From Candidatus Pelagibacter ubique HTCC1062 (lineage in GTDB: Bacteria > Pseudomonadota > Alphaproteobacteria > Pelagibacterales > Pelagibacteraceae): a stretch of 32,000 bases of DNA. This document shows positions 6,848 through 32,000 of this stretch, one piece after another. The stretch's first letter is position 1. Each line of letters starts with the position of its first letter. Made by a program: the position numbers and the translations under genes. Under the pieces are notes generated by a model. It made no database searches, had not been told where the DNA came from, and saw only the letters and a program-made list of their open reading frames with translations. The DNA lies in contig NC_007205.1 in assembly GCF_000012345.1 (NCBI RefSeq), positions 870,001 to 902,000 of the forward strand. Direction: 5' to 3'.

Positions 6848-8014
6848 ATGAAAAAAATTGCAATTTTTGGATCTACAGGCTCTATTGGATCATCATTATT
6901 AAAGATTATTAAAGATGATCAAAAAAACTTTAAAATTGAATTACTCACAGTAAATAAAAATTATAAGAAATTAATAAAACAAGTTAAATTGTTTAATGTT
7001 AAAAATGTAATTGTCACCGATTATAATTCTTTTTTAATTACAACCAAACTTTTGAAAAATGCTAAAGTTAAAGTTTTTAATAACTTTGATTCATTAAACA
7101 AAATTTTTAATACAAATAATAAAATTGATTATTCAATGTGTGCAATTTCAGGATTTGACGGATTAAAACCAACTTTGGATATTATTAAATTTACCAAAAC
7201 TATAGCGATAGCAAACAAAGAATCCATTATATGTGGATGGAATTTAATTAAAAAAGATTTAAAAAAATATAAAACATATTTTGTACCAGTAGATTCTGAA
7301 CATTTTTCTATTTGGTCACTATTAGATAACAATAAAAAAAACAATTTTGAAAAAATTTACATAACAGCTTCTGGAGGTCCTTTTAGAAACTTATCATTAA
7401 AAAAATTTAGAAATATTTCAGTTAAAGATGCATTAAAACATCCTAATTGGTCGATGGGAAAAAAAATTACAATCGATTCTGCTACAATGATGAATAAAGT
7501 TTTTGAAATTATAGAAGCAAAAAAAATCTTTAATTTAAATTATAAACAACTTGAAATATTAATTCATCCAAAGTCATACCTACATGCAATAGTAAAATTT
7601 AATAATGGTTTATCGAAACTTTTAGTTCATGATACCAATATGACAATTCCAATATTTAATTCTATTTATTTTAATACCGACAAAAAACTTAAATCAAAAA
7701 ATATCGATATTAAAACGTTAAATAATCTAAATCTTAAAAAAATTGATAATATTAGATTCCCAGTAATTAAAATTCTTAATAATTTGAGTAATGAAGATTC
7801 TTTATTTGAGACTATAATTGTGAGTGCAAATGATAAATTAGTGAAACTTTTTTTAAATAATAAGATTAAATTTAATGATATATCTAATACATTGATAAAA
7901 ATTTGTAATACTCCTGAATTCAATAAATTTAAGTCAATGAAGCCCAGAAATATTGATGAAATTCAAAATTTAAATGATTATGTAAGTTTAAAAATTAGCT
8001 CTATGAGTGTATAA
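6848..8014 (+). CDS. dxr: 1-deoxy-D-xylulose 5-phosphate reductoisomerase
   Basis: MKKIAIFGSTGSIGSS is the NADPH-binding N-terminus, and PVDSEH and NKG-like motifs are present. I chose ATG 6848, just after the cdsA stop, rather than the track start at 6806, which lies inside cdsA. Confidence 0.94.
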   Translation: MKKIAIFGSTGSIGSSLLKIIKDDQKNFKIELLTVNKNYKKLIKQVKLFNVKNVIVTDYNSFLITTKLLKNAKVKVFNNFDSLNKIFNTNNKIDYSMCAISGFDGLKPTLDIIKFTKTIAIANKESIICGWNLIKKDLKKYKTYFVPVDSEHFSIWSLLDNNKKNNFEKIYITASGGPFRNLSLKKFRNISVKDALKHPNWSMGKKITIDSATMMNKVFEIIEAKKIFNLNYKQLEILIHPKSYLHAIVKFNNGLSKLLVHDTNMTIPIFNSIYFNTDKKLKSKNIDIKTLNNLNLKKIDNIRFPVIKILNNLSNEDSLFETIIVSANDKLVKLFLNNKIKFNDISNTLIKICNTPEFNKFKSMKPRNIDEIQNLNDYVSLKISSMSV

Positions 8015-23538: not shown

Positions 23539-25455
23539 ATGATTTATAAAGAGTTCGTGTACCAAAAAATTATAAAAATTGTATTAATCTTAAGCCTTAG
23601 CTTGTTGGCTTCGTGCGCCAATAGAGGCCCATTGCCATTTTCTTTTGATTTTTTAAAGAAATCTGCTGATGAAGATATTGAAAAAATTTCAAAAATTAGA
23701 AAGCAAAATGAAATATTACAAAAAAACTTAGACATTGATTTATATACAGCGATCGCCCTTGCAATCGAAAATAACAAAGATTTAAAAGTAAAATTATTCG
23801 AAACCGCATTAGCGGACCGTCAATTGAAAGACGTAAAGTTTGACATGTTACCAACCATGTCAGCTAATGCAGGTTATTCTGGAAGTGACAATTATCAATC
23901 ATCCACAAGTGCAACTGTTGGAAATAATGATATAGCAGCATCCAAAGGGTCTACATACTCTACATCACGAAATAGAGATGTTGTTGATCAAGATATAGGT
24001 TTTGCTTGGAACGCACTTGATTTTGGTTTGTCTTATATCAGAGCAGGGCAAACAAGCGATCGATTTTTAATTGCAAAAGAGATAGAAAAAAAATCAGCTA
24101 ACAATATTGCAAAAGAAGTTATTCGATCTTATTGGAATGCTCTTTCTGCAGATAAGTTAATTCAAAAATACGATCCTTTAATTAAAAAAGTAAAAATAGC
24201 TTTAAGCGACTCTCAAAAAATAGAAGAGATGTTGCTACAAAAACCAATGGATGCACTTTTGTATCAAAAAGAATTGCTAGATATAAAGAGAGCTCTTATT
24301 ACACAAAGACAAACTTTAATTAATTCTAAAATTGAATTAGGAACCTTAATGGGATTGTTGCCCAACCAAAGCTATAAATTAGTAGCAACCAATCAACCTA
24401 TCAATATTTTAGACATGGATTTAAAAAACATGGAAAAACATGCTTTAGTTAGTAGAGCAGAGTTATTAGAAAATCGATATCAAGAAAGAATATCCGTTGC
24501 TGAAACTAAAGTTGGATTAAGATCTTTGTTACCTAATTTTAATATTAACGCAGCTTTCACAAGTTCTTCAAATGATTATCTACAAAATAAATCAAATTTT
24601 GAATTTGGTTCTTCAGTTGGCGCAAACTTATTAAATGTCTTTAGAGCACCATCGATTAAGAAAATGAATGAGGCAAATACAGAAATTATTAAAGAACAAC
24701 GTCTTGCTTTATCTATGGCTATTTTATCACAAGTTCATTTAGCAAATATCGATTTTCAAATGAGCATGGAAGAATATGATACGGCTGAACGTTATTTAAA
24801 AGTTTCAACAAAAATTGCCGACCAAGTTCGAAACGCACAAAAAATTGCAAGATTTGGCGAATTAGAATTAATTAGAGAAGAAGCGGGTACTCTTGTTGCT
24901 GAACTAAGAAGAGACATTTCATTCTCTAAAATGCAACATTCAATTGCACAAGTTTATACCTCAGTTGGAATTGATATTACCACAAGAGACACCATAGTAG
25001 GGGGAACGGAATTATTTGCATATGAAATTAAGAATAAATTTAGTGGTTTAGGTAAAAAATACATTGCAAAAGTAACAGAACCTATTCAAAAACAAAATCC
25101 AGTTGCTAAACAATTTGATGAAAATTATAAAAAATTTGAATTTTCAGATAAAACATTCAAACTTGAAGGTCAAGGTTCTGTTCAATATTCAGCAAGATTA
25201 GCAAATGATCAACCATTACCTAGTTGGATAGATTTTTTACCAACGCAAAGAGCGTTTTTAATAGACTCGGTACTAAAAGGTGACATTCATGAAATAGAGC
25301 TCATTGTTAATGCAAAAAATATCAATTCTACAGTTGATGATCAATTTACTTTGATAGTGGATCCAATTTTAAAGAGCCAAAAAGATTTAGCAAAAATAAT
25401 AGGTACCACATTAAAAGAAAAAGCTGAAATAGTTAAAGCTTCAAAAATCCAATAA
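23539..25455 (+). CDS. outer-membrane efflux (TolC/OEP-family) lipoprotein with a C-terminal extension of about 150 aa
   Basis: Lipobox LLAS-C, with Cys26 at nt 23614-23616. An OEP-type repeat starts at LDIDLYTAIALAIENNKDLK, and a second repeat lies around LDMDLKNMEKHALVSRAELLEN. At 638 aa it is much longer than typical TolC-family proteins. Confidence 0.85.
   Translation: MIYKEFVYQKIIKIVLILSLSLLASCANRGPLPFSFDFLKKSADEDIEKISKIRKQNEILQKNLDIDLYTAIALAIENNKDLKVKLFETALADRQLKDVKFDMLPTMSANAGYSGSDNYQSSTSATVGNNDIAASKGSTYSTSRNRDVVDQDIGFAWNALDFGLSYIRAGQTSDRFLIAKEIEKKSANNIAKEVIRSYWNALSADKLIQKYDPLIKKVKIALSDSQKIEEMLLQKPMDALLYQKELLDIKRALITQRQTLINSKIELGTLMGLLPNQSYKLVATNQPINILDMDLKNMEKHALVSRAELLENRYQERISVAETKVGLRSLLPNFNINAAFTSSSNDYLQNKSNFEFGSSVGANLLNVFRAPSIKKMNEANTEIIKEQRLALSMAILSQVHLANIDFQMSMEEYDTAERYLKVSTKIADQVRNAQKIARFGELELIREEAGTLVAELRRDISFSKMQHSIAQVYTSVGIDITTRDTIVGGTELFAYEIKNKFSGLGKKYIAKVTEPIQKQNPVAKQFDENYKKFEFSDKTFKLEGQGSVQYSARLANDQPLPSWIDFLPTQRAFLIDSVLKGDIHEIELIVNAKNINSTVDDQFTLIVDPILKSQKDLAKIIGTTLKEKAEIVKASKIQ
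25135..25365 (+). other. cadherin-like (dystroglycan-type, CADG/He_PIG-like) Ig-fold domain fused to the C-terminus of the TolC-like protein
   Basis: FEFSDKTFKLEGQGSVQYSARLANDQPLPSWIDFLPTQRAFLIDSVLKGDIHEIELIVNAKNINSTVDDQFTLIVDP. The pattern Y-A-L-(N/D)-PLPSW(L/I)-F-then-GD/G-...-I-V-A-D-...-F-L-V is the classic signature of this domain family. Confidence 0.6.
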
Positions 25456-25469: not shown

Positions 25470-25697
25470 ATGAAGAAAATTACAAAGAATATTAAGGTTA
25501 AAGTTGCCTCGAATAAAAAAAAAGTTTCAGGAAACATATTGAATGCACCTAAAACACATAAATTACCTCGTGTGGTTAAAGCAAGAGCAGGACAAACTAT
25601 AACAGGTAAAATTGGAGGTATTAGAAAGACACCCAATAAATCAATTGCAAAACCAGGACAAACAATAACTGGTAAAATTAGACGAAGAACCAATTGA
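25470..25697 (+). CDS. small (75 aa) highly basic protein with an internal 22-aa tandem repeat; function unknown
   Basis: It has a strong SD and Lys-rich composition like the host proteome. I recognise no hydrophobic segment or family. The motif (A/P)GQTITGKI occurs twice. Its TGA overlaps the TTG start of the giant ORF. Confidence 0.6.
   Translation: MKKITKNIKVKVASNKKKVSGNILNAPKTHKLPRVVKARAGQTITGKIGGIRKTPNKSIAKPGQTITGKIRRRTN
25588..25679 (+). repeat. 66-nt-period imperfect direct repeat inside the small ORF
   Basis: caggacaaactataacaggtaaaatt at 25588-25613 versus caggacaaacaataactggtaaaatt at 25654-25679, both encoding GQTITGKI. Confidence 0.8.
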
Positions 25698-28600
25698 CCC
25701 AAAAACCTAAAAAGAAACAGAAAATATTTATAGAAGCCCTTGAGCAGAGGATAATGCTCGACGGAGCAGGGGCCTCAACCTTTTTAGATTTAATTGATGA
25801 ACGTAATCAAGAAGATATAAAAAAAAACTCTAAAATAATCGATACCACTAAAGACAACAATGAAGTTCCTTTTGCAAACACTGCAAGAGACCAAAACAAA
25901 AAAAATGTAGTCTTTATTGATAGTGCTGTCTCTGATTATGAAACCATTATTAATTCATTTAAAGAAAACACTGAGTTTTATTTAATCAACTCCAATGAAG
26001 ATGGATTTAAAAGAATTAGTGAAATTTTAAATGATCGAAAAGATATTGATGGTTTACACATCATCGGTCACGGTAGTGCTGGACAAATTTTATTTGGTAA
26101 TGCCTTTTTAAATAACGATACCATCACTAATTACCAATCAACTTTAGCATCCATTGGTCAATCGTTAACCACAAGTGGAGATATTTTATTTTATGGTTGT
26201 AATGTAGCTTCCACTGAACAAGGTGAAATTTTAATTAAAAAAATATCAGAGATTACTAAAGCAGATATTGCAGCGTCAGATGACCTTACTGGTAAAGGTG
26301 GAGACTGGGTATTAGAAAAAAAAGAAGGTTTAATTGGTGAAGAAGAACTTAAAGTTAAAAATTACAAACATGCTCTTGGATCATTATCTTCTTCAGGTGT
26401 TCTATCTAACTCAGGTGTTACTCATATTGATAGCAATGTTACAATGATGAATTCTGGTAATGTTGGACTTGGAAGCTCAGGAGCTTTTGCAACAGTTGGT
26501 TCTGATTTTGGTTTAGCTGTAGAACAACAAAATGTTTCTGTTTCTAGTGGAGAATTAATTTCGAATCTTGATGTTGATTCAACTTATATTTTCGATGACG
26601 ATAATGATACTGGAGATGCTGCATTACAAAATGGAGCTAATCAAAATGCTTCAAGCAATATTACGGTAAATTCATATCTAATGTTTCTAGTAGAGGATAT
26701 AAACAAAAGAGCCAGTGGTTCAGCTGGAGAAGTTGTTTTTGACGGTGAAATAGTTGGAATATTTTTTGATCAAGCAAAAACTCGAGCAGCAAGTGTTGGT
26801 GGTAACACATATCATTCTGGCAATTTAATTTATGCAATGAGTGGTAGCGGAGGAAGTAGCAATTCTTCAGATAATGACGGTGGTAGAATGGCAGAGGGTA
26901 AAAAAAGTCATACTGGTATGACAAACTTCTTTAATACTACTCAATCTCATAGTTCATCTGCAGCTATTGCAAATGGTAGTAGCGGTTCTGATTGGGTTTC
27001 TGTTTCAAATCATGGAAGTGGAACAAATAATCTTTTACAATTTGGAGCGCAGAATGCGAATGTTTCCGCTGGAGATTATATAAGAATTCTCGTTGTACCA
27101 AACTCATCAGATGGTTCAGCAACTGTTGAAGAAGATGGCTCTGTATCAGTTAGCAATGGAGGAAGCGCTTCAAGTCCTGATCCAATTACAGTCGACTCAG
27201 GATCTACATTAAGTTCATCATCAGGTAGCCCAAGAAGAATGACTTTTAGCGATGATGGGACTAAATTATTTGTTCTAGAGCATACTAACGATACAATAAC
27301 TACACATAATCTTGGAACTGCTTACGATATTTCAACCCAAACTTCATCAGTAACAGGTACTACTTTAGCCTCAAACCCTCATTCCAGTTCCAGGGCTTAT
27401 GGAATAGCTTTTAGCAATGATGGAACTAAAATGTTTACATCAGATCTTGATACAGGATATGTTTATCAATCGACTTTGACTACCCCCTGGGATGTGTCCA
27501 CAAATCAAAGAAGTTCTTCAGATGATTTAAATACAGTTTCTCTTTATGGAGTAACAGCTAGTAATAGCTTATATAATAGAGACATTACATTTAGCGAGGA
27601 TGGAACCAAATTATTTATTTTAGGGTCTGATAAAACAGTTCATCAAATTAGTTTAGGAACAGCATGGGATCTATCATCTTATCAAACTCCAGATGTTGAA
27701 AAAGATCTTTCATCAATCCTAACCGACACATATGCCAACTCAATTAGCTTTAGTCCAAATGGAAAAAAAATGTTCATCAATGAATATAATAACACAATTC
27801 ATGAGTTTTCAATTGCAACTGCTTGGGATTTATCTTCAACGGTTACCAATGAAGGAAGTTTTCAATTAGGAACAGAAATAGCAAGTAATAATTTTGGAGA
27901 AGTTACTTGGAATAAAGATGGAACAAAACTTTTTGCAATAGATGATTTAGCTGAGGATATTACTGAGTATACTGTTTCAACACCATTTTCACTTGCAAAT
28001 GTGGATCAAACTAAATCTGCCGAAAGTATCTCAACTGTTTCATCAATTAGAACAGGAACAGTTGCTGCAGGAAGTGGAACATCAGGTTCAACTAATACTG
28101 CTTTAACCGGAACTTACGGTCAGTTAACTATTCAATCCAATGGTTCATATAGTTATGTTGCAAATCAAGATGCAGCGGATGCACTAGATCCAGGGGATAT
28201 TGTGTATGATTATTTTACTATTAATGGAGATACAGATTTAACAATTACCGTTATAGGTATCAATGATACACCAATCGCTGACAATGAAACTAATTCAACA
28301 GATGTTAGTACAACATTAACTGTTACAGATGGGTCTTCAGATGTTTTAGCAGGTGATACGGATGCTGATGCAGATGCATCTTTAACTGTTTCTGCAATCA
28401 GAACAGGTTCATCAGAAGGTTCAGGTGACGCAGGTACAATTGGTTCAGCTTTAAATGGAAGTTATGGTGCTTTAACAATGAACTCTGATGGTACCTATAC
28501 TTATGTTGCAAGTTCAAGCGCTGGAACTGATAGTTTTAACTACACTGTAACCGATGAATTTGGTGCAACAGATATTGCAACGTTAACTATTACTGTTAAT

Positions 28601-31600
28601 TCATCTAACGCTGCACCTACCGCATCTAATTCAACAGTATACATTAATGAAAATAACCAAGTATCTTCAGCAGGAGATAGAACACCATCTAATATTTCAA
28701 AAATATTTGCAGCCAGTGATTTTAATTATTCAGACGGTGATAGTGATAGTTTATCAAAAATAAAAATTACTACTTTAGAAAGTGCGGGTGTTTTAGAATA
28801 TTCATCTAATGGATCATCTTGGGCTGATGTAACTTTAAATCAAGAAATAACAGCGTCAGATATTAGTAATAATAAATTAAGATTTACCCCAGCTGCAAAT
28901 TCAGAAAGTAATGTAACGTTTGGTTTTAAAGTTCATGATGGTACAGATTATAGTTCATCAGCTTACACAATGACAGTATCTGTTAACGCTGCACCAAATG
29001 TTACAGATGCAACAGTTGGATCAACAGTGTCTGCTGATGGAACCAGTTCCGGTGATGTTCATGATGGTGTTGCAGATAGTGATGATGCTGATAGTGTTTT
29101 AGTAGTAACTGGTGTTGCATCAGGAAATGAAAGTTCAAATAATTCAATTGTAACCGATAATACTGGGGTTGGTTCAGCAGTATCTGGAACCTATGGTTCA
29201 TTAAATATTGCTGCAAACGGTACTTATACTTACACAGCAAGTTCAACAAATAATATCGCGTACGATGCAACTGCAACAGACATTTTTACATTTACTACAC
29301 GTGATGATGAAAGTAATTCAGGATCTAATGCCTATGACGTAGGTAGCATTACTTTTACCGTTGCAAGTTCAATTTCTTTAACAGATGACACGGATAGTGT
29401 TAATGAAGATGCAACAATTACTAAAACTGGTTCTCAAGACGATGTATTAAATGATGATGCTGCTGATACTAATGGTTTAGTAGTCACCCATATTAAAAAA
29501 GATGGTGGATCAAATTCAACAGTTGCTAGTAGTAGTACTTATACATCTAACGGAACTTCTGTTACGGGTACTTATGGTACTTTAGTAATTGGTGCGGATG
29601 GTTCTTATACTTATACAGCCGATCAAAGTGCTGCTGATGATTTAGATTTAAATGATGAAGTAACAGATGTATTTGTCTATACGGCAGATGGTGCTACAGC
29701 AAATTTAACTATTACAGTAACTGGTATCAATGATGTACCAGAAGCTGCAGATAAAACTGTAACTACAAATGAGGATACAGCTTATGTATTTTCAGCATCA
29801 GATTTTGGCTACACAGATGCAGATGACGATGATGCGTTAGTAAGTGTAAAAATTACAGGATTAGAAGATGCTGGTGCTTTACAATATAATAATGGTAGTG
29901 CTTGGGTAGATGTAACTGAAAATCAAGTGATAACAGCAACGGATATCGGTAATAATAAATTGAGATTTAACCCAGCTGCAAATGAAAATGGATCTTCTTA
30001 CACTAGTTTTGATTTTACAGTAAATGATGGCGATGCAGATAGTGCCTCAGCTAATACAATTACAGTCAATGTAACAGCAGTTAACGATGCACCTGTTGCA
30101 GATAACGAAACTAATTCAGTCAATGAAGATGCAACATTAACCGTTACCGATGGAACTTCAGATGTTTTACATGGAGACACTGATACTGAAAATGATGCAT
30201 TAACCGTTACCCAAATTGCAGTAACAGGTGCATCTGCTTCATCAGTTGCAGGAAGTAGTACTTACAATAGTAACGGAACATCAAAAACAGGTACTTATGG
30301 TACTTTAGTAATTGGTGCGGATGGTACTTATACTTATACAGCAGATCAATCAGCTGCTGATGACCTTGATGCTGGAGATACCGCAACCGATAGTTTTACT
30401 TACACGGTTTCAGATGGAACCGCAACGGATACTGCAACAATTACAATAACAGTGACAGGTATCAATGATGTACCAGAAGCTGCAGATAAAACTGTAACTA
30501 CAAATGAGGATACAGCTTATGTATTTTCAGCATCAGATTTTGGCTACACAGATGCAGATGATGATGATGCGTTAGTAAGTGTAAAAATTACAGGATTAGA
30601 ATCTGCTGGTGCTTTACAATATAACAATGGATCAGCTTGGGTAGATGTAACTGAAAATCAAGTGATAACAGCAACGGATATCGGTAATAATAAATTGAGA
30701 TTTAACCCAGCTGCAAATGAAAATGGATCTTCTTACACTAGTTTTGATTTTACAGTAAATGATGGCGATGCAGACAGTGCCTCAGCTAATACAATTACAG
30801 TCAATGTAACAGCAGTTAACGATGCACCAACTGCAAGAGGTGACACTGGTATTGTAAATGAAGATGTAACGTTAACAGTTTCTAATAGTAGTAATGCAAC
30901 AACAAGTGTTACTGCAGCTTCATTTGTTAGATCTAAATCTTTAGGGGATGCAGGATATCAAAGTCAGGAAACAAAATTTAGTCCTGATGGAACAAAAATG
31001 TTTGTGCTTGATACTTATCAAAATACAAATGAAATTCATCAATATACATTAACAACCGCCTTTGATATTTCTAGTGCTTCATTTGATGGTGCAGATGAAA
31101 CTTTTGACCTTAGTAATGAGAATTCTTCATCGAGTAATTTCACATTTAATAATGATGGAACCAAATTCTATTCAGCTTATTCGGGTAGATTATATGAATA
31201 TGACGTATCAACTGCTTATGATATTTCCACAAGTTCTTATAATAATAATTTCTTTGATTTAATACTGGAGTACCCAAATACTCGTAATATGGGTAGTGGT
31301 GTAAACGTAGCATTTAATAGCGATGGAACCAAATTATTTGCGCTAGATGCACAACAACGTGAAGTGCATGAATACTCTCTTTCAACTGCCTTTGATGTAA
31401 CTTCAGCATCTCGTACAAATAATTATGTAAGTGTTGGCACTCAAGAAGCAAGTCCATACGGTTTTGCATTTAGCAATGATGGAAAAAAAATGTTTATATC
31501 TGGATTGGGAAAGGATGTTAATGAATATACACTCTCAACTGGTTTTGACTTATCATCTACTTTTGAGTTTGTAGGTAGTTTTGATGTTTCATCTAAAGAT

Positions 31601-32000
31601 TGGTATCCACTCGGTATTACATTTAACAATGATGGTACAAAAATGTTTGTGACAGGCTCACAACAAGATAAACTTTTTGAATATTCGCTTACTACTCCTT
31701 TCAGCTTAATAGATGTATCAGGTGAACATTCAGGAGATGTCATTAACACAAGTTCAACAGATAATTATGATACAGACCCTGAGGGCGACGCACTAACGGT
31801 TACAACTTACTCTCATACATCAGCAACAGATCAAGATGGGGGTAGTATATCTTCAACAAGCAGTACTGGAACAGCTGGAACCAACAATGTTACAGGTTAT
31901 TATGGAACATTGGATTTAGAAGGTAATGGTTCTTACACTTATACTGCAGATCTAACAGTAACTCAGGCCTTAGATTCAGGAGATACTGTAACAGATATAT
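25694..32000 (+). CDS. giant repetitive surface/secreted adhesin-like protein (DUF4347 N-terminus, propeller-like cassettes, VCBS and cadherin-like repeats); 3' end lies beyond the window
   Basis: Hand translation of the frame with positions congruent to 2 mod 3 shows no stop from 25682 to 32000. The previous in-frame stop is TAG at 25679-25681. This gives at least 2102 codons. The ORF is not in the supplied track, presumably because it has no stop in the window. The N-terminus reads (M)TQKPKKKQKIFIEALEQRIMLDGAGAS. Confidence 0.9.
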   Translation, partial: MTQKPKKKQKIFIEALEQRIMLDGAGASTFLDLIDERNQEDIKKNSKIIDTTKDNNEVPFANTARDQNKKNVVFIDSAVSDYETIINSFKENTEFYLINSNEDGFKRISEILNDRKDIDGLHIIGHGSAGQILFGNAFLNNDTITNYQSTLASIGQSLTTSGDILFYGCNVASTEQGEILIKKISEITKADIAASDDLTGKGGDWVLEKKEGLIGEEELKVKNYKHALGSLSSSGVLSNSGVTHIDSNVTMMNSGNVGLGSSGAFATVGSDFGLAVEQQNVSVSSGELISNLDVDSTYIFDDDNDTGDAALQNGANQNASSNITVNSYLMFLVEDINKRASGSAGEVVFDGEIVGIFFDQAKTRAASVGGNTYHSGNLIYAMSGSGGSSNSSDNDGGRMAEGKKSHTGMTNFFNTTQSHSSSAAIANGSSGSDWVSVSNHGSGTNNLLQFGAQNANVSAGDYIRILVVPNSSDGSATVEEDGSVSVSNGGSASSPDPITVDSGSTLSSSSGSPRRMTFSDDGTKLFVLEHTNDTITTHNLGTAYDISTQTSSVTGTTLASNPHSSSRAYGIAFSNDGTKMFTSDLDTGYVYQSTLTTPWDVSTNQRSSSDDLNTVSLYGVTASNSLYNRDITFSEDGTKLFILGSDKTVHQISLGTAWDLSSYQTPDVEKDLSSILTDTYANSISFSPNGKKMFINEYNNTIHEFSIATAWDLSSTVTNEGSFQLGTEIASNNFGEVTWNKDGTKLFAIDDLAEDITEYTVSTPFSLANVDQTKSAESISTVSSIRTGTVAAGSGTSGSTNTALTGTYGQLTIQSNGSYSYVANQDAADALDPGDIVYDYFTINGDTDLTITVIGINDTPIADNETNSTDVSTTLTVTDGSSDVLAGDTDADADASLTVSAIRTGSSEGSGDAGTIGSALNGSYGALTMNSDGTYTYVASSSAGTDSFNYTVTDEFGATDIATLTITVNSSNAAPTASNSTVYINENNQVSSAGDRTPSNISKIFAASDFNYSDGDSDSLSKIKITTLESAGVLEYSSNGSSWADVTLNQEITASDISNNKLRFTPAANSESNVTFGFKVHDGTDYSSSAYTMTVSVNAAPNVTDATVGSTVSADGTSSGDVHDGVADSDDADSVLVVTGVASGNESSNNSIVTDNTGVGSAVSGTYGSLNIAANGTYTYTASSTNNIAYDATATDIFTFTTRDDESNSGSNAYDVGSITFTVASSISLTDDTDSVNEDATITKTGSQDDVLNDDAADTNGLVVTHIKKDGGSNSTVASSSTYTSNGTSVTGTYGTLVIGADGSYTYTADQSAADDLDLNDEVTDVFVYTADGATANLTITVTGINDVPEAADKTVTTNEDTAYVFSASDFGYTDADDDDALVSVKITGLEDAGALQYNNGSAWVDVTENQVITATDIGNNKLRFNPAANENGSSYTSFDFTVNDGDADSASANTITVNVTAVNDAPVADNETNSVNEDATLTVTDGTSDVLHGDTDTENDALTVTQIAVTGASASSVAGSSTYNSNGTSKTGTYGTLVIGADGTYTYTADQSAADDLDAGDTATDSFTYTVSDGTATDTATITITVTGINDVPEAADKTVTTNEDTAYVFSASDFGYTDADDDDALVSVKITGLESAGALQYNNGSAWVDVTENQVITATDIGNNKLRFNPAANENGSSYTSFDFTVNDGDADSASANTITVNVTAVNDAPTARGDTGIVNEDVTLTVSNSSNATTSVTAASFVRSKSLGDAGYQSQETKFSPDGTKMFVLDTYQNTNEIHQYTLTTAFDISSASFDGADETFDLSNENSSSSNFTFNNDGTKFYSAYSGRLYEYDVSTAYDISTSSYNNNFFDLILEYPNTRNMGSGVNVAFNSDGTKLFALDAQQREVHEYSLSTAFDVTSASRTNNYVSVGTQEASPYGFAFSNDGKKMFISGLGKDVNEYTLSTGFDLSSTFEFVGSFDVSSKDWYPLGITFNNDGTKMFVTGSQQDKLFEYSLTTPFSLIDVSGEHSGDVINTSSTDNYDTDPEGDALTVTTYSHTSATDQDGGSISSTSSTGTAGTNNVTGYYGTLDLEGNGSYTYTADLTVTQALDSGDTVTDI
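25904..26317 (+). other. DUF4347-like N-terminal domain of the giant protein
   Basis: NVVFIDSAVSDYETII...DGLHIIGHGSAGQILFGN...GDILFYGCNVAS...ADIAASDDLTGKGGDWVLE is the pattern characteristic of DUF4347. It is preceded by the LE-x-R-I-(M/L)-(L/F)-DGA motif usual at the N-terminus of such giant proteins. Confidence 0.7.
27233..28003 (+). repeat. beta-propeller-like cassette 1: five blade-like repeats of about 50 aa
   Basis: Five units fit the pattern (I/V)xFSxDGTK(L/M)F...(E/Q)(Y/F)xLxTA(W/Y)D(I/L)S(S/T): MTFSDDGTKLF..AYDISTQ, IAFSNDGTKMF..PWDVSTN, ITFSEDGTKLF..AWDLSSY, ISFSPNGKKMF..AWDLSST, VTWNKDGTKLF..TPFSLANV. Confidence 0.65.
29723..30093 (+). repeat. near-identical 371-bp direct repeat, copy 1
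   Basis: It aligns without gaps to 30458-30828 (offset 735 nt, or 245 codons) with about 9 mismatches by hand count. Confidence 0.9.
30458..30828 (+). repeat. near-identical 371-bp direct repeat, copy 2
   Basis: See copy 1. Both encode GINDVPEAADKTVTTNEDTAYVFSASDFGYTDADDDDALVSVKITGLE..AGALQYNNGSAWVDVTENQVITATDIGNNKLRFNPAANENGSSYTSFDFTVNDGDADSASANTITVNVTAVNDAP. Confidence 0.9.
30962..31717 (+). repeat. beta-propeller-like cassette 2: five blade-like repeats, homologous to cassette 1
   Basis: TKFSPDGTKMF..AFDISSA, FTFNNDGTKFY..AYDISTS, VAFNSDGTKLF..AFDVTSA, FAFSNDGKKMF..GFDLSST, ITFNNDGTKMF..TPFSLIDV. It ends with the same TPFSL motif as cassette 1. Confidence 0.65.

Follow-up and report, generated by a model that had tools for sequence, protein, structure and literature searches.

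A TolC-family lipoprotein of SAR11 bacteria with a C-terminal He_PIG immunoglobulin-like domain

A channel gene of Candidatus Pelagibacter ubique HTCC1062 encodes, as judged from its sequence, a TolC-family lipoprotein with a C-terminal extension, and profile comparisons together with a predicted fold identify this extension as a genuine He_PIG/CADG immunoglobulin (Ig)-like domain. The gene lies in a stretch of 32,000 nucleotides, hereafter the window, which covers positions 870001-902000 of a closed genome of 1,308,759 bp with a G+C content of ~29% (Table 1). All loci related to it belong to the Pelagibacterales (SAR11); they and the other loci that we compared are labeled L with a number. 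The protein represents a new architectural variant of a well-known family, in which the domain is securely identified and the fusion firmly established as conserved. As for its role, we consider it fairly probable that the protein is a lipid-anchored, dedicated channel whose periplasmic Ig appendage would act as the base of a strut or tether.

The limits of the TolC core are clear from two lines of evidence. Pfam recognizes the OEP family (PF02321) in two stretches of the 638-aa channel, with 90.6 bits for the whole protein (E 1.4e-25) and 66 and 38.8 bits for the individual repeats, each above the Pfam cut-off. Alignments to TolC relatives from non-SAR11 Alphaproteobacteria end at query residues ~480-505; therefore, the core ends near residue 485 and is followed by about 150 extra residues. 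Both results agree with a preliminary description of this DNA, which had placed the end of the OEP part at residues 480-490. That description had also read an N-terminal LLAS-C lipobox, which is indeed present at residues 22-26; in an alignment of 17 homologs (A1), Cys26 is conserved in at least 90%. The label “NodT-like,” which it derived from the lipobox, holds for the motif but not for the subfamily. An NCBIfam scan (E up to 1) returned no lipoprotein outer membrane factor (OMF) model for the channel; TIGR01844, the TolC model of type I secretion, was the sole OMF model returned, at 25.6 bits against a cut-off of 225 bits. We thus read the lipobox as a feature in common with NodT/OprM-type OMFs and not as a sign of subfamily membership. 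Searches of the PDB by sequence with the channel core, either as a profile or as a single sequence, gave no significant match to any solved OMF. The chain of TolC-family proteins does not end in a barrel strand, so that the earlier remark that the extension deprives this protein of the C-terminal aromatic residue of outer membrane barrels carries no weight.

The extension had been described as a dystroglycan-type cadherin-like module at positions 25021-25455, corresponding to residues 495-638, with the quoted peptide QYSARLANDQPLPSWIDF...FTLIVDP at residues 549-609. The HTCC1062-type copy lacks the G-x-P motif that other SAR11 clades retain and, as the comparisons below indicate, is a diverged He_PIG member; therefore, a family profile is needed to settle its identity. 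Taken alone, the copy has no He_PIG match at E 0.01, and NCBIfam and Pfam scans of the extension returned a sub-threshold He_PIG match only. By contrast, when an alignment of the domain from 32 SAR11 species (A2) was compared by hhalign with an alignment of 14 certified He_PIG repeats (A3), the match had a probability of 99.3% and an E value of 3.5e-20 over 102 columns. The Pfam He_PIG model (PF05345; gathering score, 24 bits) matches 21 of the 32 orthologous domains, with a best E of 9.6e-8, and reaches 25.5 bits, above its gathering score, in the full ortholog L075. In the other direction, the profile built from A2 gives single He_PIG repeats 50-60 bits each; these scores and the hhalign E value put the resemblance well outside what chance would give. 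These hidden Markov model (HMM) comparisons bear out the module proposed in the preliminary description, with one qualification: “cadherin-like” is right in the sense of the He_PIG/CADG Ig fold and wrong in the sense of a classical cadherin, since residues 475-638 have no match to the latter family (PF00028) at E up to 1.

The relatives of the domain tell the same story. A phmmer search with residues 505-638 against 1.8 billion representative proteins returned 1,183 matches; the non-orthologous ones are giant proteins, matched in up to 36 tandem stretches, and all five of those that were sampled are Pfam He_PIG arrays of 8-25 repeats. By this search, the closest non-orthologous relatives of the channel domain are He_PIG repeats arranged in tandem in giant adhesins. 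AlphaFold 2 (AF2), run on A2, predicted a beta-sandwich of six strands with a C-terminal helix (mean predicted local distance difference test [pLDDT], 87.3; predicted template modeling score [pTM], 0.73). When this model was compared with the PDB by Foldseek, the top matches were the N-terminal Ig domain of alpha-dystroglycan (1u2c) and the dystrophin-glycoprotein complex (9c3c); next came Rib, protocadherin, and further Ig domains. At E ~1e-3 and a template modeling (TM) score of 0.45-0.53, the Foldseek scores are modest; they agree with the class of fold and with the term “dystroglycan-type” without being proof on their own. A sequence search of the PDB with the domain profile gave only weak matches to Kit Ig domains (E 0.06).

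A fusion of this kind could be an artifact in which a sequencing frameshift has merged two genes, one for TolC and a small separate one for an Ig domain, as the preliminary description had pointed out. The probability of this explanation is negligible, and we ruled it out because one and the same uninterrupted architecture is conserved across more than 1,000 independent proteins from metagenomes, 77 species genomes, and one closed genome. The metagenomic proteins are marine and measure 613-920 aa, and the Ig segment is among their best conserved parts. The Ig domain directly follows the core in 77 of 80 SAR11 species-representative loci, or 77 of the 79 that are informative. Of the remaining three loci, one is truncated at the end of a contig, and the other two (L044 and L045) represent a lineage that has lost the Ig domain while retaining a Lys-rich tail. 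This lineage is nested deep within the Pelagibacter clade; thus, the absence of the domain is a secondary loss. The channel itself is accessory in the genus, being present in 8 of 121 high-quality same-genus genomes, and the Ig domain accompanies it in all 8. In a sample of the order, the channel domain was found in 47 of 151 genomes, among them most of those sampled from a second Pelagibacterales family.

Fusions of a TolC-family core to a cadherin-like domain are not restricted to SAR11. A database search for further examples and their neighbors, which the preliminary description had suggested, was productive: the proteins of L097 and L098, from two small-genome alphaproteobacterial families outside SAR11, combine OEP with He_PIG (33.6 and 47.5 bits, above the Pfam cut-off). 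In an unrooted tree of the core, the two sit apart from the others on a long branch of their own. Their position is compatible with two scenarios: either the fusion of OEP and He_PIG arose twice, or it is old and has been repeatedly lost. In both loci (L097:357-3316 and L098:164-3032), the gene is divergent from a VirB8-like gene, and the giant-protein module described below is not nearby. In the literature, we found no paper describing a TolC-family protein with an He_PIG or SPOR extension.

What follows the Ig domain differs among lineages. In most orthologs, the chain goes on, either as a long tail rich in K and E or as an acidic linker with a SPOR domain. Ortholog L059 has the order OEP, He_PIG, and SPOR (L059:9953-12400; SPOR at residues 741-811, with 21.7 bits against a cut-off of 21), and a SPOR-like end is found in 30 of the 77 SAR11 channel tails (loci in the range L047-L089). 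By eye, the 924-996-aa tail type (L060/L075) could also pass for SPOR, but this assignment is tentative: its HMM match is weak (E 0.01-0.08), and Pfam gives none. Other Pelagibacter lineages have, in place of SPOR, a Lys/Glu-rich tail of 150-300 aa that is probably helical. The long Lys/Glu-rich tails hold a small motif twice (ERATVKDGKDLKLFSEEEI..MI.KQ.KKN…; seen in P0041, P0042, P0054, P0119, L016, and L020), which has no counterpart in Pfam and could represent a mini-domain not yet described. The window protein retains only a 30-residue helix after the Ig domain, and no SPOR domain (PF05036) was found in it by the Pfam scan. Outside SAR11, one module-linked channel (L101:2158-4584) consists of OEP and SPOR (31.6 bits) without an Ig domain.

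These tails bear on where the domain sits. TolC-family proteins have both chain ends in the periplasm, with the C-terminus emerging from the helical barrel at the level of the equatorial belt. The SPOR domain that follows the Ig domain in orthologs is of a type that binds peptidoglycan in the periplasm, which argues that the extension is periplasmic. From the family topology and the SPOR-bearing orthologs, we infer that the Ig domain is located in the periplasm and not at the cell surface. The opposite arrangement, in which the domain is shown outside the cell as an adhesion or glycan-binding module, would suit a family that is typical of extracellular adhesins and glycosidases. Yet this arrangement is very improbable: besides the periplasmic C-terminus and the peptidoglycan-binding SPOR domain that comes after the Ig domain in orthologs, there are no additional membrane strands past the core. 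We rejected surface display on the topology and the SPOR domains. With a periplasmic location, the domain is unlikely to take part in contacts with external glycans or cells, and the glycan contact suggested in the preliminary description becomes unlikely too, if an external one was meant.

Taken together, these features suggest how the channel may work. The last ~150 residues would form a periplasmic appendage made of a linker (residues 485-527), the Ig module (~528-608), and a helix (609-638). The chain would exit at the equatorial belt, outside the periplasmic tunnel, and trimerization would thus surround the tunnel with three Ig modules, roughly level with the peptidoglycan layer. The Ig module would be the constant base of a strut and the tail its variable part; we favor this reading because the Ig domain is constant and is then followed by SPOR or by a Lys/Glu-rich helical tail in sister lineages. 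The strut would fix the channel to the cell wall and/or to unusual periplasmic partners, and the HTCC1062-type protein would be a short form that has kept the Ig module and lost the tail. The channel would serve the neighboring export module, which comprises a 7,337-aa repeat protein, two HlyD-like adaptors, and a fusion of an M50 protease with HlyD. The equatorial domain of TolC has been proposed to lie at the peptidoglycan, and the accessory lipoprotein YbjP docks there (PMC13082787).

Several observations weigh against this account. A pure tether role fails to explain why the Ig module is kept alone in the window protein, which has neither SPOR nor a long tail. The loss in L044 and L045 indicates that the domain is dispensable in some backgrounds, and the module channels of non-SAR11 species, with genomes of 2-6 Mb, have no Ig domain at all. 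The window's own copy scores 13 bits (E 0.15) with the He_PIG model, below the gathering score. Finally, the placement of the domain draws no support from the sole full-length AF2 model, which is poor (pLDDT 45). That model was built from a shallow alignment of 17 close homologs; it predicts long helices in an unreliable fold, only its Ig segment is well predicted, and it gives no usable information on how the Ig domain is oriented relative to the barrel. Structure prediction, proposed in the preliminary description for the full protein as a means to locate the domain, thus gave a confident fold for the domain when modeled separately and no usable model of the full chain.

Because the genome encodes a second, plain TolC (positions 624488-625684), the 638-aa channel can be regarded as dedicated. 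Its presumed cargo is the product of the giant gene that begins downstream and continues to genome position 917707 (window equivalent, 47707). This 7,337-aa protein has an N-terminal LEPR-XLL motif, DUF4347, and long cadherin-like arrays. Three HlyD-like genes come after it, beyond the window end, at genome positions 917722-921865 (window equivalent, 47722-51865). The channel, the giant gene, and the three HlyD-like genes recur across SAR11 loci, with the channel gene either codirectional with or divergent from the giant gene. The same module occurs in unrelated Alphaproteobacteria with genomes of 2-6 Mb (L095 and L096), and its partner proteins are strongly similar, with an E of 2e-158 for the M50-HlyD fusion. 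There is no ABC (ATP-binding cassette) transporter gene in the channel/giant/HlyD cluster, and a Pfam scan of cargo residues 1-2102 and of the last 457 residues found no RTX (repeats-in-toxin) repeats in those parts. The module does not correspond to canonical type I secretion, which combines an ABC transporter, HlyD, TolC, and an RTX cargo.

Two other roles can be considered for the Ig domain, each involving a partner encoded in this module. The first concerns the cargo. In the giant protein, ~6,900 residues of cadherin-like repeats are followed by a distinct C-terminal region of ~450 aa with two He_PIG-like modules (…DGSALPEWIKINPKTGQ… and …DGTEVPDWLEYDPVTGQ…; genome 916,9xx-917,5xx; window equivalent, ~46,950-47,540). 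The He_PIG domain of the channel might bind one or both of these modules at the extreme C-terminus of the giant, either for cargo recognition or to retain the tail in the periplasm and thereby keep the fibre on the cell. The profile of the channel domain matches the giant significantly only at residues 7087-7153 and 7242-7283, past the repeats, and the sole Pfam He_PIG match in the genome, a weak one, is also in this C-terminal region. The same C-terminal match or matches occur in all 35 informative SAR11 giants and are absent from the 3 non-SAR11 module giants examined, whose channels have no Ig domain. Yet this contrast is confounded by phylogeny, being effectively one clade against others. 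Furthermore, the L045 genome lacks the Ig domain in its channel and still has an He_PIG-like match in the tail of its giant, and the channel domain resembles canonical He_PIG repeats (50-60 bits) much more than it does the cargo modules (10-30 bits). Overall, cargo docking is a real possibility that we nevertheless regard as doubtful.

Two stricter forms of this relationship were rejected. The channel Ig domain and the cargo He_PIG modules are not strictly coupled: the giant gene of L045 is split and extends past the locus, and the genome retains the C-terminal He_PIG-like match. Nor is the channel domain descended from the cargo modules, since it is nearer to canonical He_PIG repeats. A bolder extension of cargo docking is conceivable, in which the channel He_PIG domain and the C-terminal He_PIG-like pair of the giant would form a specific lock that docks or permanently anchors the 7,337-aa fibre to the TolC channel, within an ABC-less route driven or gated by the M50 protease and with SPOR tethering to the wall in orthologs. 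We think this quite unlikely; if true, it would constitute an undescribed class of envelope-spanning export machine.

The second role concerns the adaptors. The Ig domain may contact one of the HlyD-like proteins (the 237-aa protein, the 444-aa protein, or M50-HlyD) and so stabilize an envelope-spanning complex that has no ABC, resistance-nodulation-division (RND), or major facilitator superfamily (MFS) pump. The constant linkage of the channel gene to the three HlyD-like genes across SAR11 loci is consistent with such a contact, as are the lack of an ABC transporter in the module and the predicted position of three Ig modules at the equator, near the place where, in this family, adaptor tips and TolC meet (PMC13082787). 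However, the same three adaptors, with the high similarity noted above for M50-HlyD, occur with Ig-less channels in other Alphaproteobacteria, and we consider adaptor docking unlikely. Our preferred reading thus remains that of a periplasmic strut or tether.

Table 1. Features of the channel gene and of the genes downstream of it
Feature	Position in the window	Strand	Basis or remark
Channel gene, TolC-family lipoprotein with C-terminal extension	23539..25455, stop codon included	+	Single uninterrupted frame, 638 aa
Signal peptide and lipobox (LLAS|C), residues 1-26	23539..23616	+	Read from the sequence
TolC core, two OEP repeats	23743..24957 (23743-24354; 24424-24957)	+	Pfam PF02321, both above cut-off
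Linker past the last TolC helix, residues 485-527, with predicted helix 483-501	24991..25119	+	Low-confidence full-length model
He_PIG (dystroglycan-type cadherin-like) Ig-like beta-sandwich, residues ~528-608	25120..25362	+	hhalign; Pfam on orthologs; AF2; Foldseek
C-terminal 30-residue helix, residues 609-638	25363..25452	+	AF2 helix, positions 98-126 of the domain model
Very basic small open reading frame (ORF), 75 aa, between the channel and giant genes	25470..25697	+	tblastn in other loci
Giant-protein gene, 5' part, presumed channel cargo	25694..32000	+	LEPR-XLL, DUF4347, cadherin-like repeats
Secreted 237-aa HlyD/RND-adaptor-like protein; 444-aa HlyD-like protein; 700-aa M50 intramembrane metalloprotease-HlyD fusion			In that order after the giant gene

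Some smaller features of the locus are also worth recording. The 75-aa ORF was found by tblastn just after the TolC stop codon in L015, L016-L020, L024, L028, and L037, whichever way the giant gene is oriented; thus, it stays associated with the 3' end of the channel gene. The ORF has a strong Shine-Dalgarno sequence (AAGGAG) and a 22-aa repeat (GQTITGKI) and is without a signal peptide. The M50 part of the 700-aa fusion resembles the daptide leader protease NF041824, with 131.7 bits, below the cut-off of 300 bits. Right after M50-HlyD lies a type IV pilin-like gene with an N-terminal methylation motif (genome positions 921943-922563; window equivalent, 51943-52563).

TolC-family channels are usually viewed as bare ducts that owe their specificity to inner-membrane partners. 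Here, a dedicated channel from SAR11, a lineage with very small genomes, carries a folded module of its own, probably in the periplasm, to which its relatives add SPOR. Despite extreme streamlining, nearly all genomes with the channel have retained this add-on, suggesting that tethers or docking sites can be built into channels. The finding also offers a handle on an uncharacterized module, with a giant protein, three HlyD-like proteins including an M50 protease, and no ABC pump, that is spread across the Alphaproteobacteria.

With the TolC/OMF family, in its lipoprotein type such as OprM, the channel shares two OEP repeats, an N-terminal lipobox, and a genetic linkage to HlyD-type periplasmic adaptors and to a very large exported protein. 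It differs from them in its ~150 extra C-terminal residues with an Ig-like domain and in its partner, an M50 protease-HlyD fusion instead of an ABC, RND, or MFS pump. The LapA/LapE system likewise has a dedicated TolC-like channel beside a giant repetitive surface protein and, possibly, a tether between cargo and channel. Unlike that system, the present module has no ABC transporter and no LapG or LapD, and the scanned cargo parts have no RTX repeats. Moreover, retention in the Lap system relies on an N-terminal plug of the cargo, whereas cargo docking as considered here would involve an Ig domain on the channel and the other end of the cargo. Like the SPOR proteins FtsN, DamX, DedD, and RlpA, channel orthologs end in a periplasmic peptidoglycan-binding SPOR domain, which the window protein itself lacks. 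The He_PIG domains of giant bacterial adhesins and of alpha-dystroglycan have in common with the channel domain the signature F.F..TF...YSA.L..G..LP.WL.F...R.F.G.P....L.V.A.D....D.FTL and the beta-sandwich fold; in adhesins, they form tandem extracellular arrays, while the channel has a single, fused, and presumably periplasmic copy. A close counterpart is YbjP, the lipoprotein partner of Escherichia coli TolC, of which three copies per trimer attach to the outer face of the channel, in the zone from the equatorial belt to the membrane (PMC13082787). In both cases, a small globular accessory module would sit on the outside of a channel, the placement of the Ig domain being the predicted one; YbjP, however, is a separate alpha/beta lipoprotein that acts in trans, whereas the SAR11 module is an Ig fold fused in cis at the C-terminus. 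With YbjP only recently described at this same region of TolC, an equivalent fused in cis is timely for structural work on efflux and secretion.

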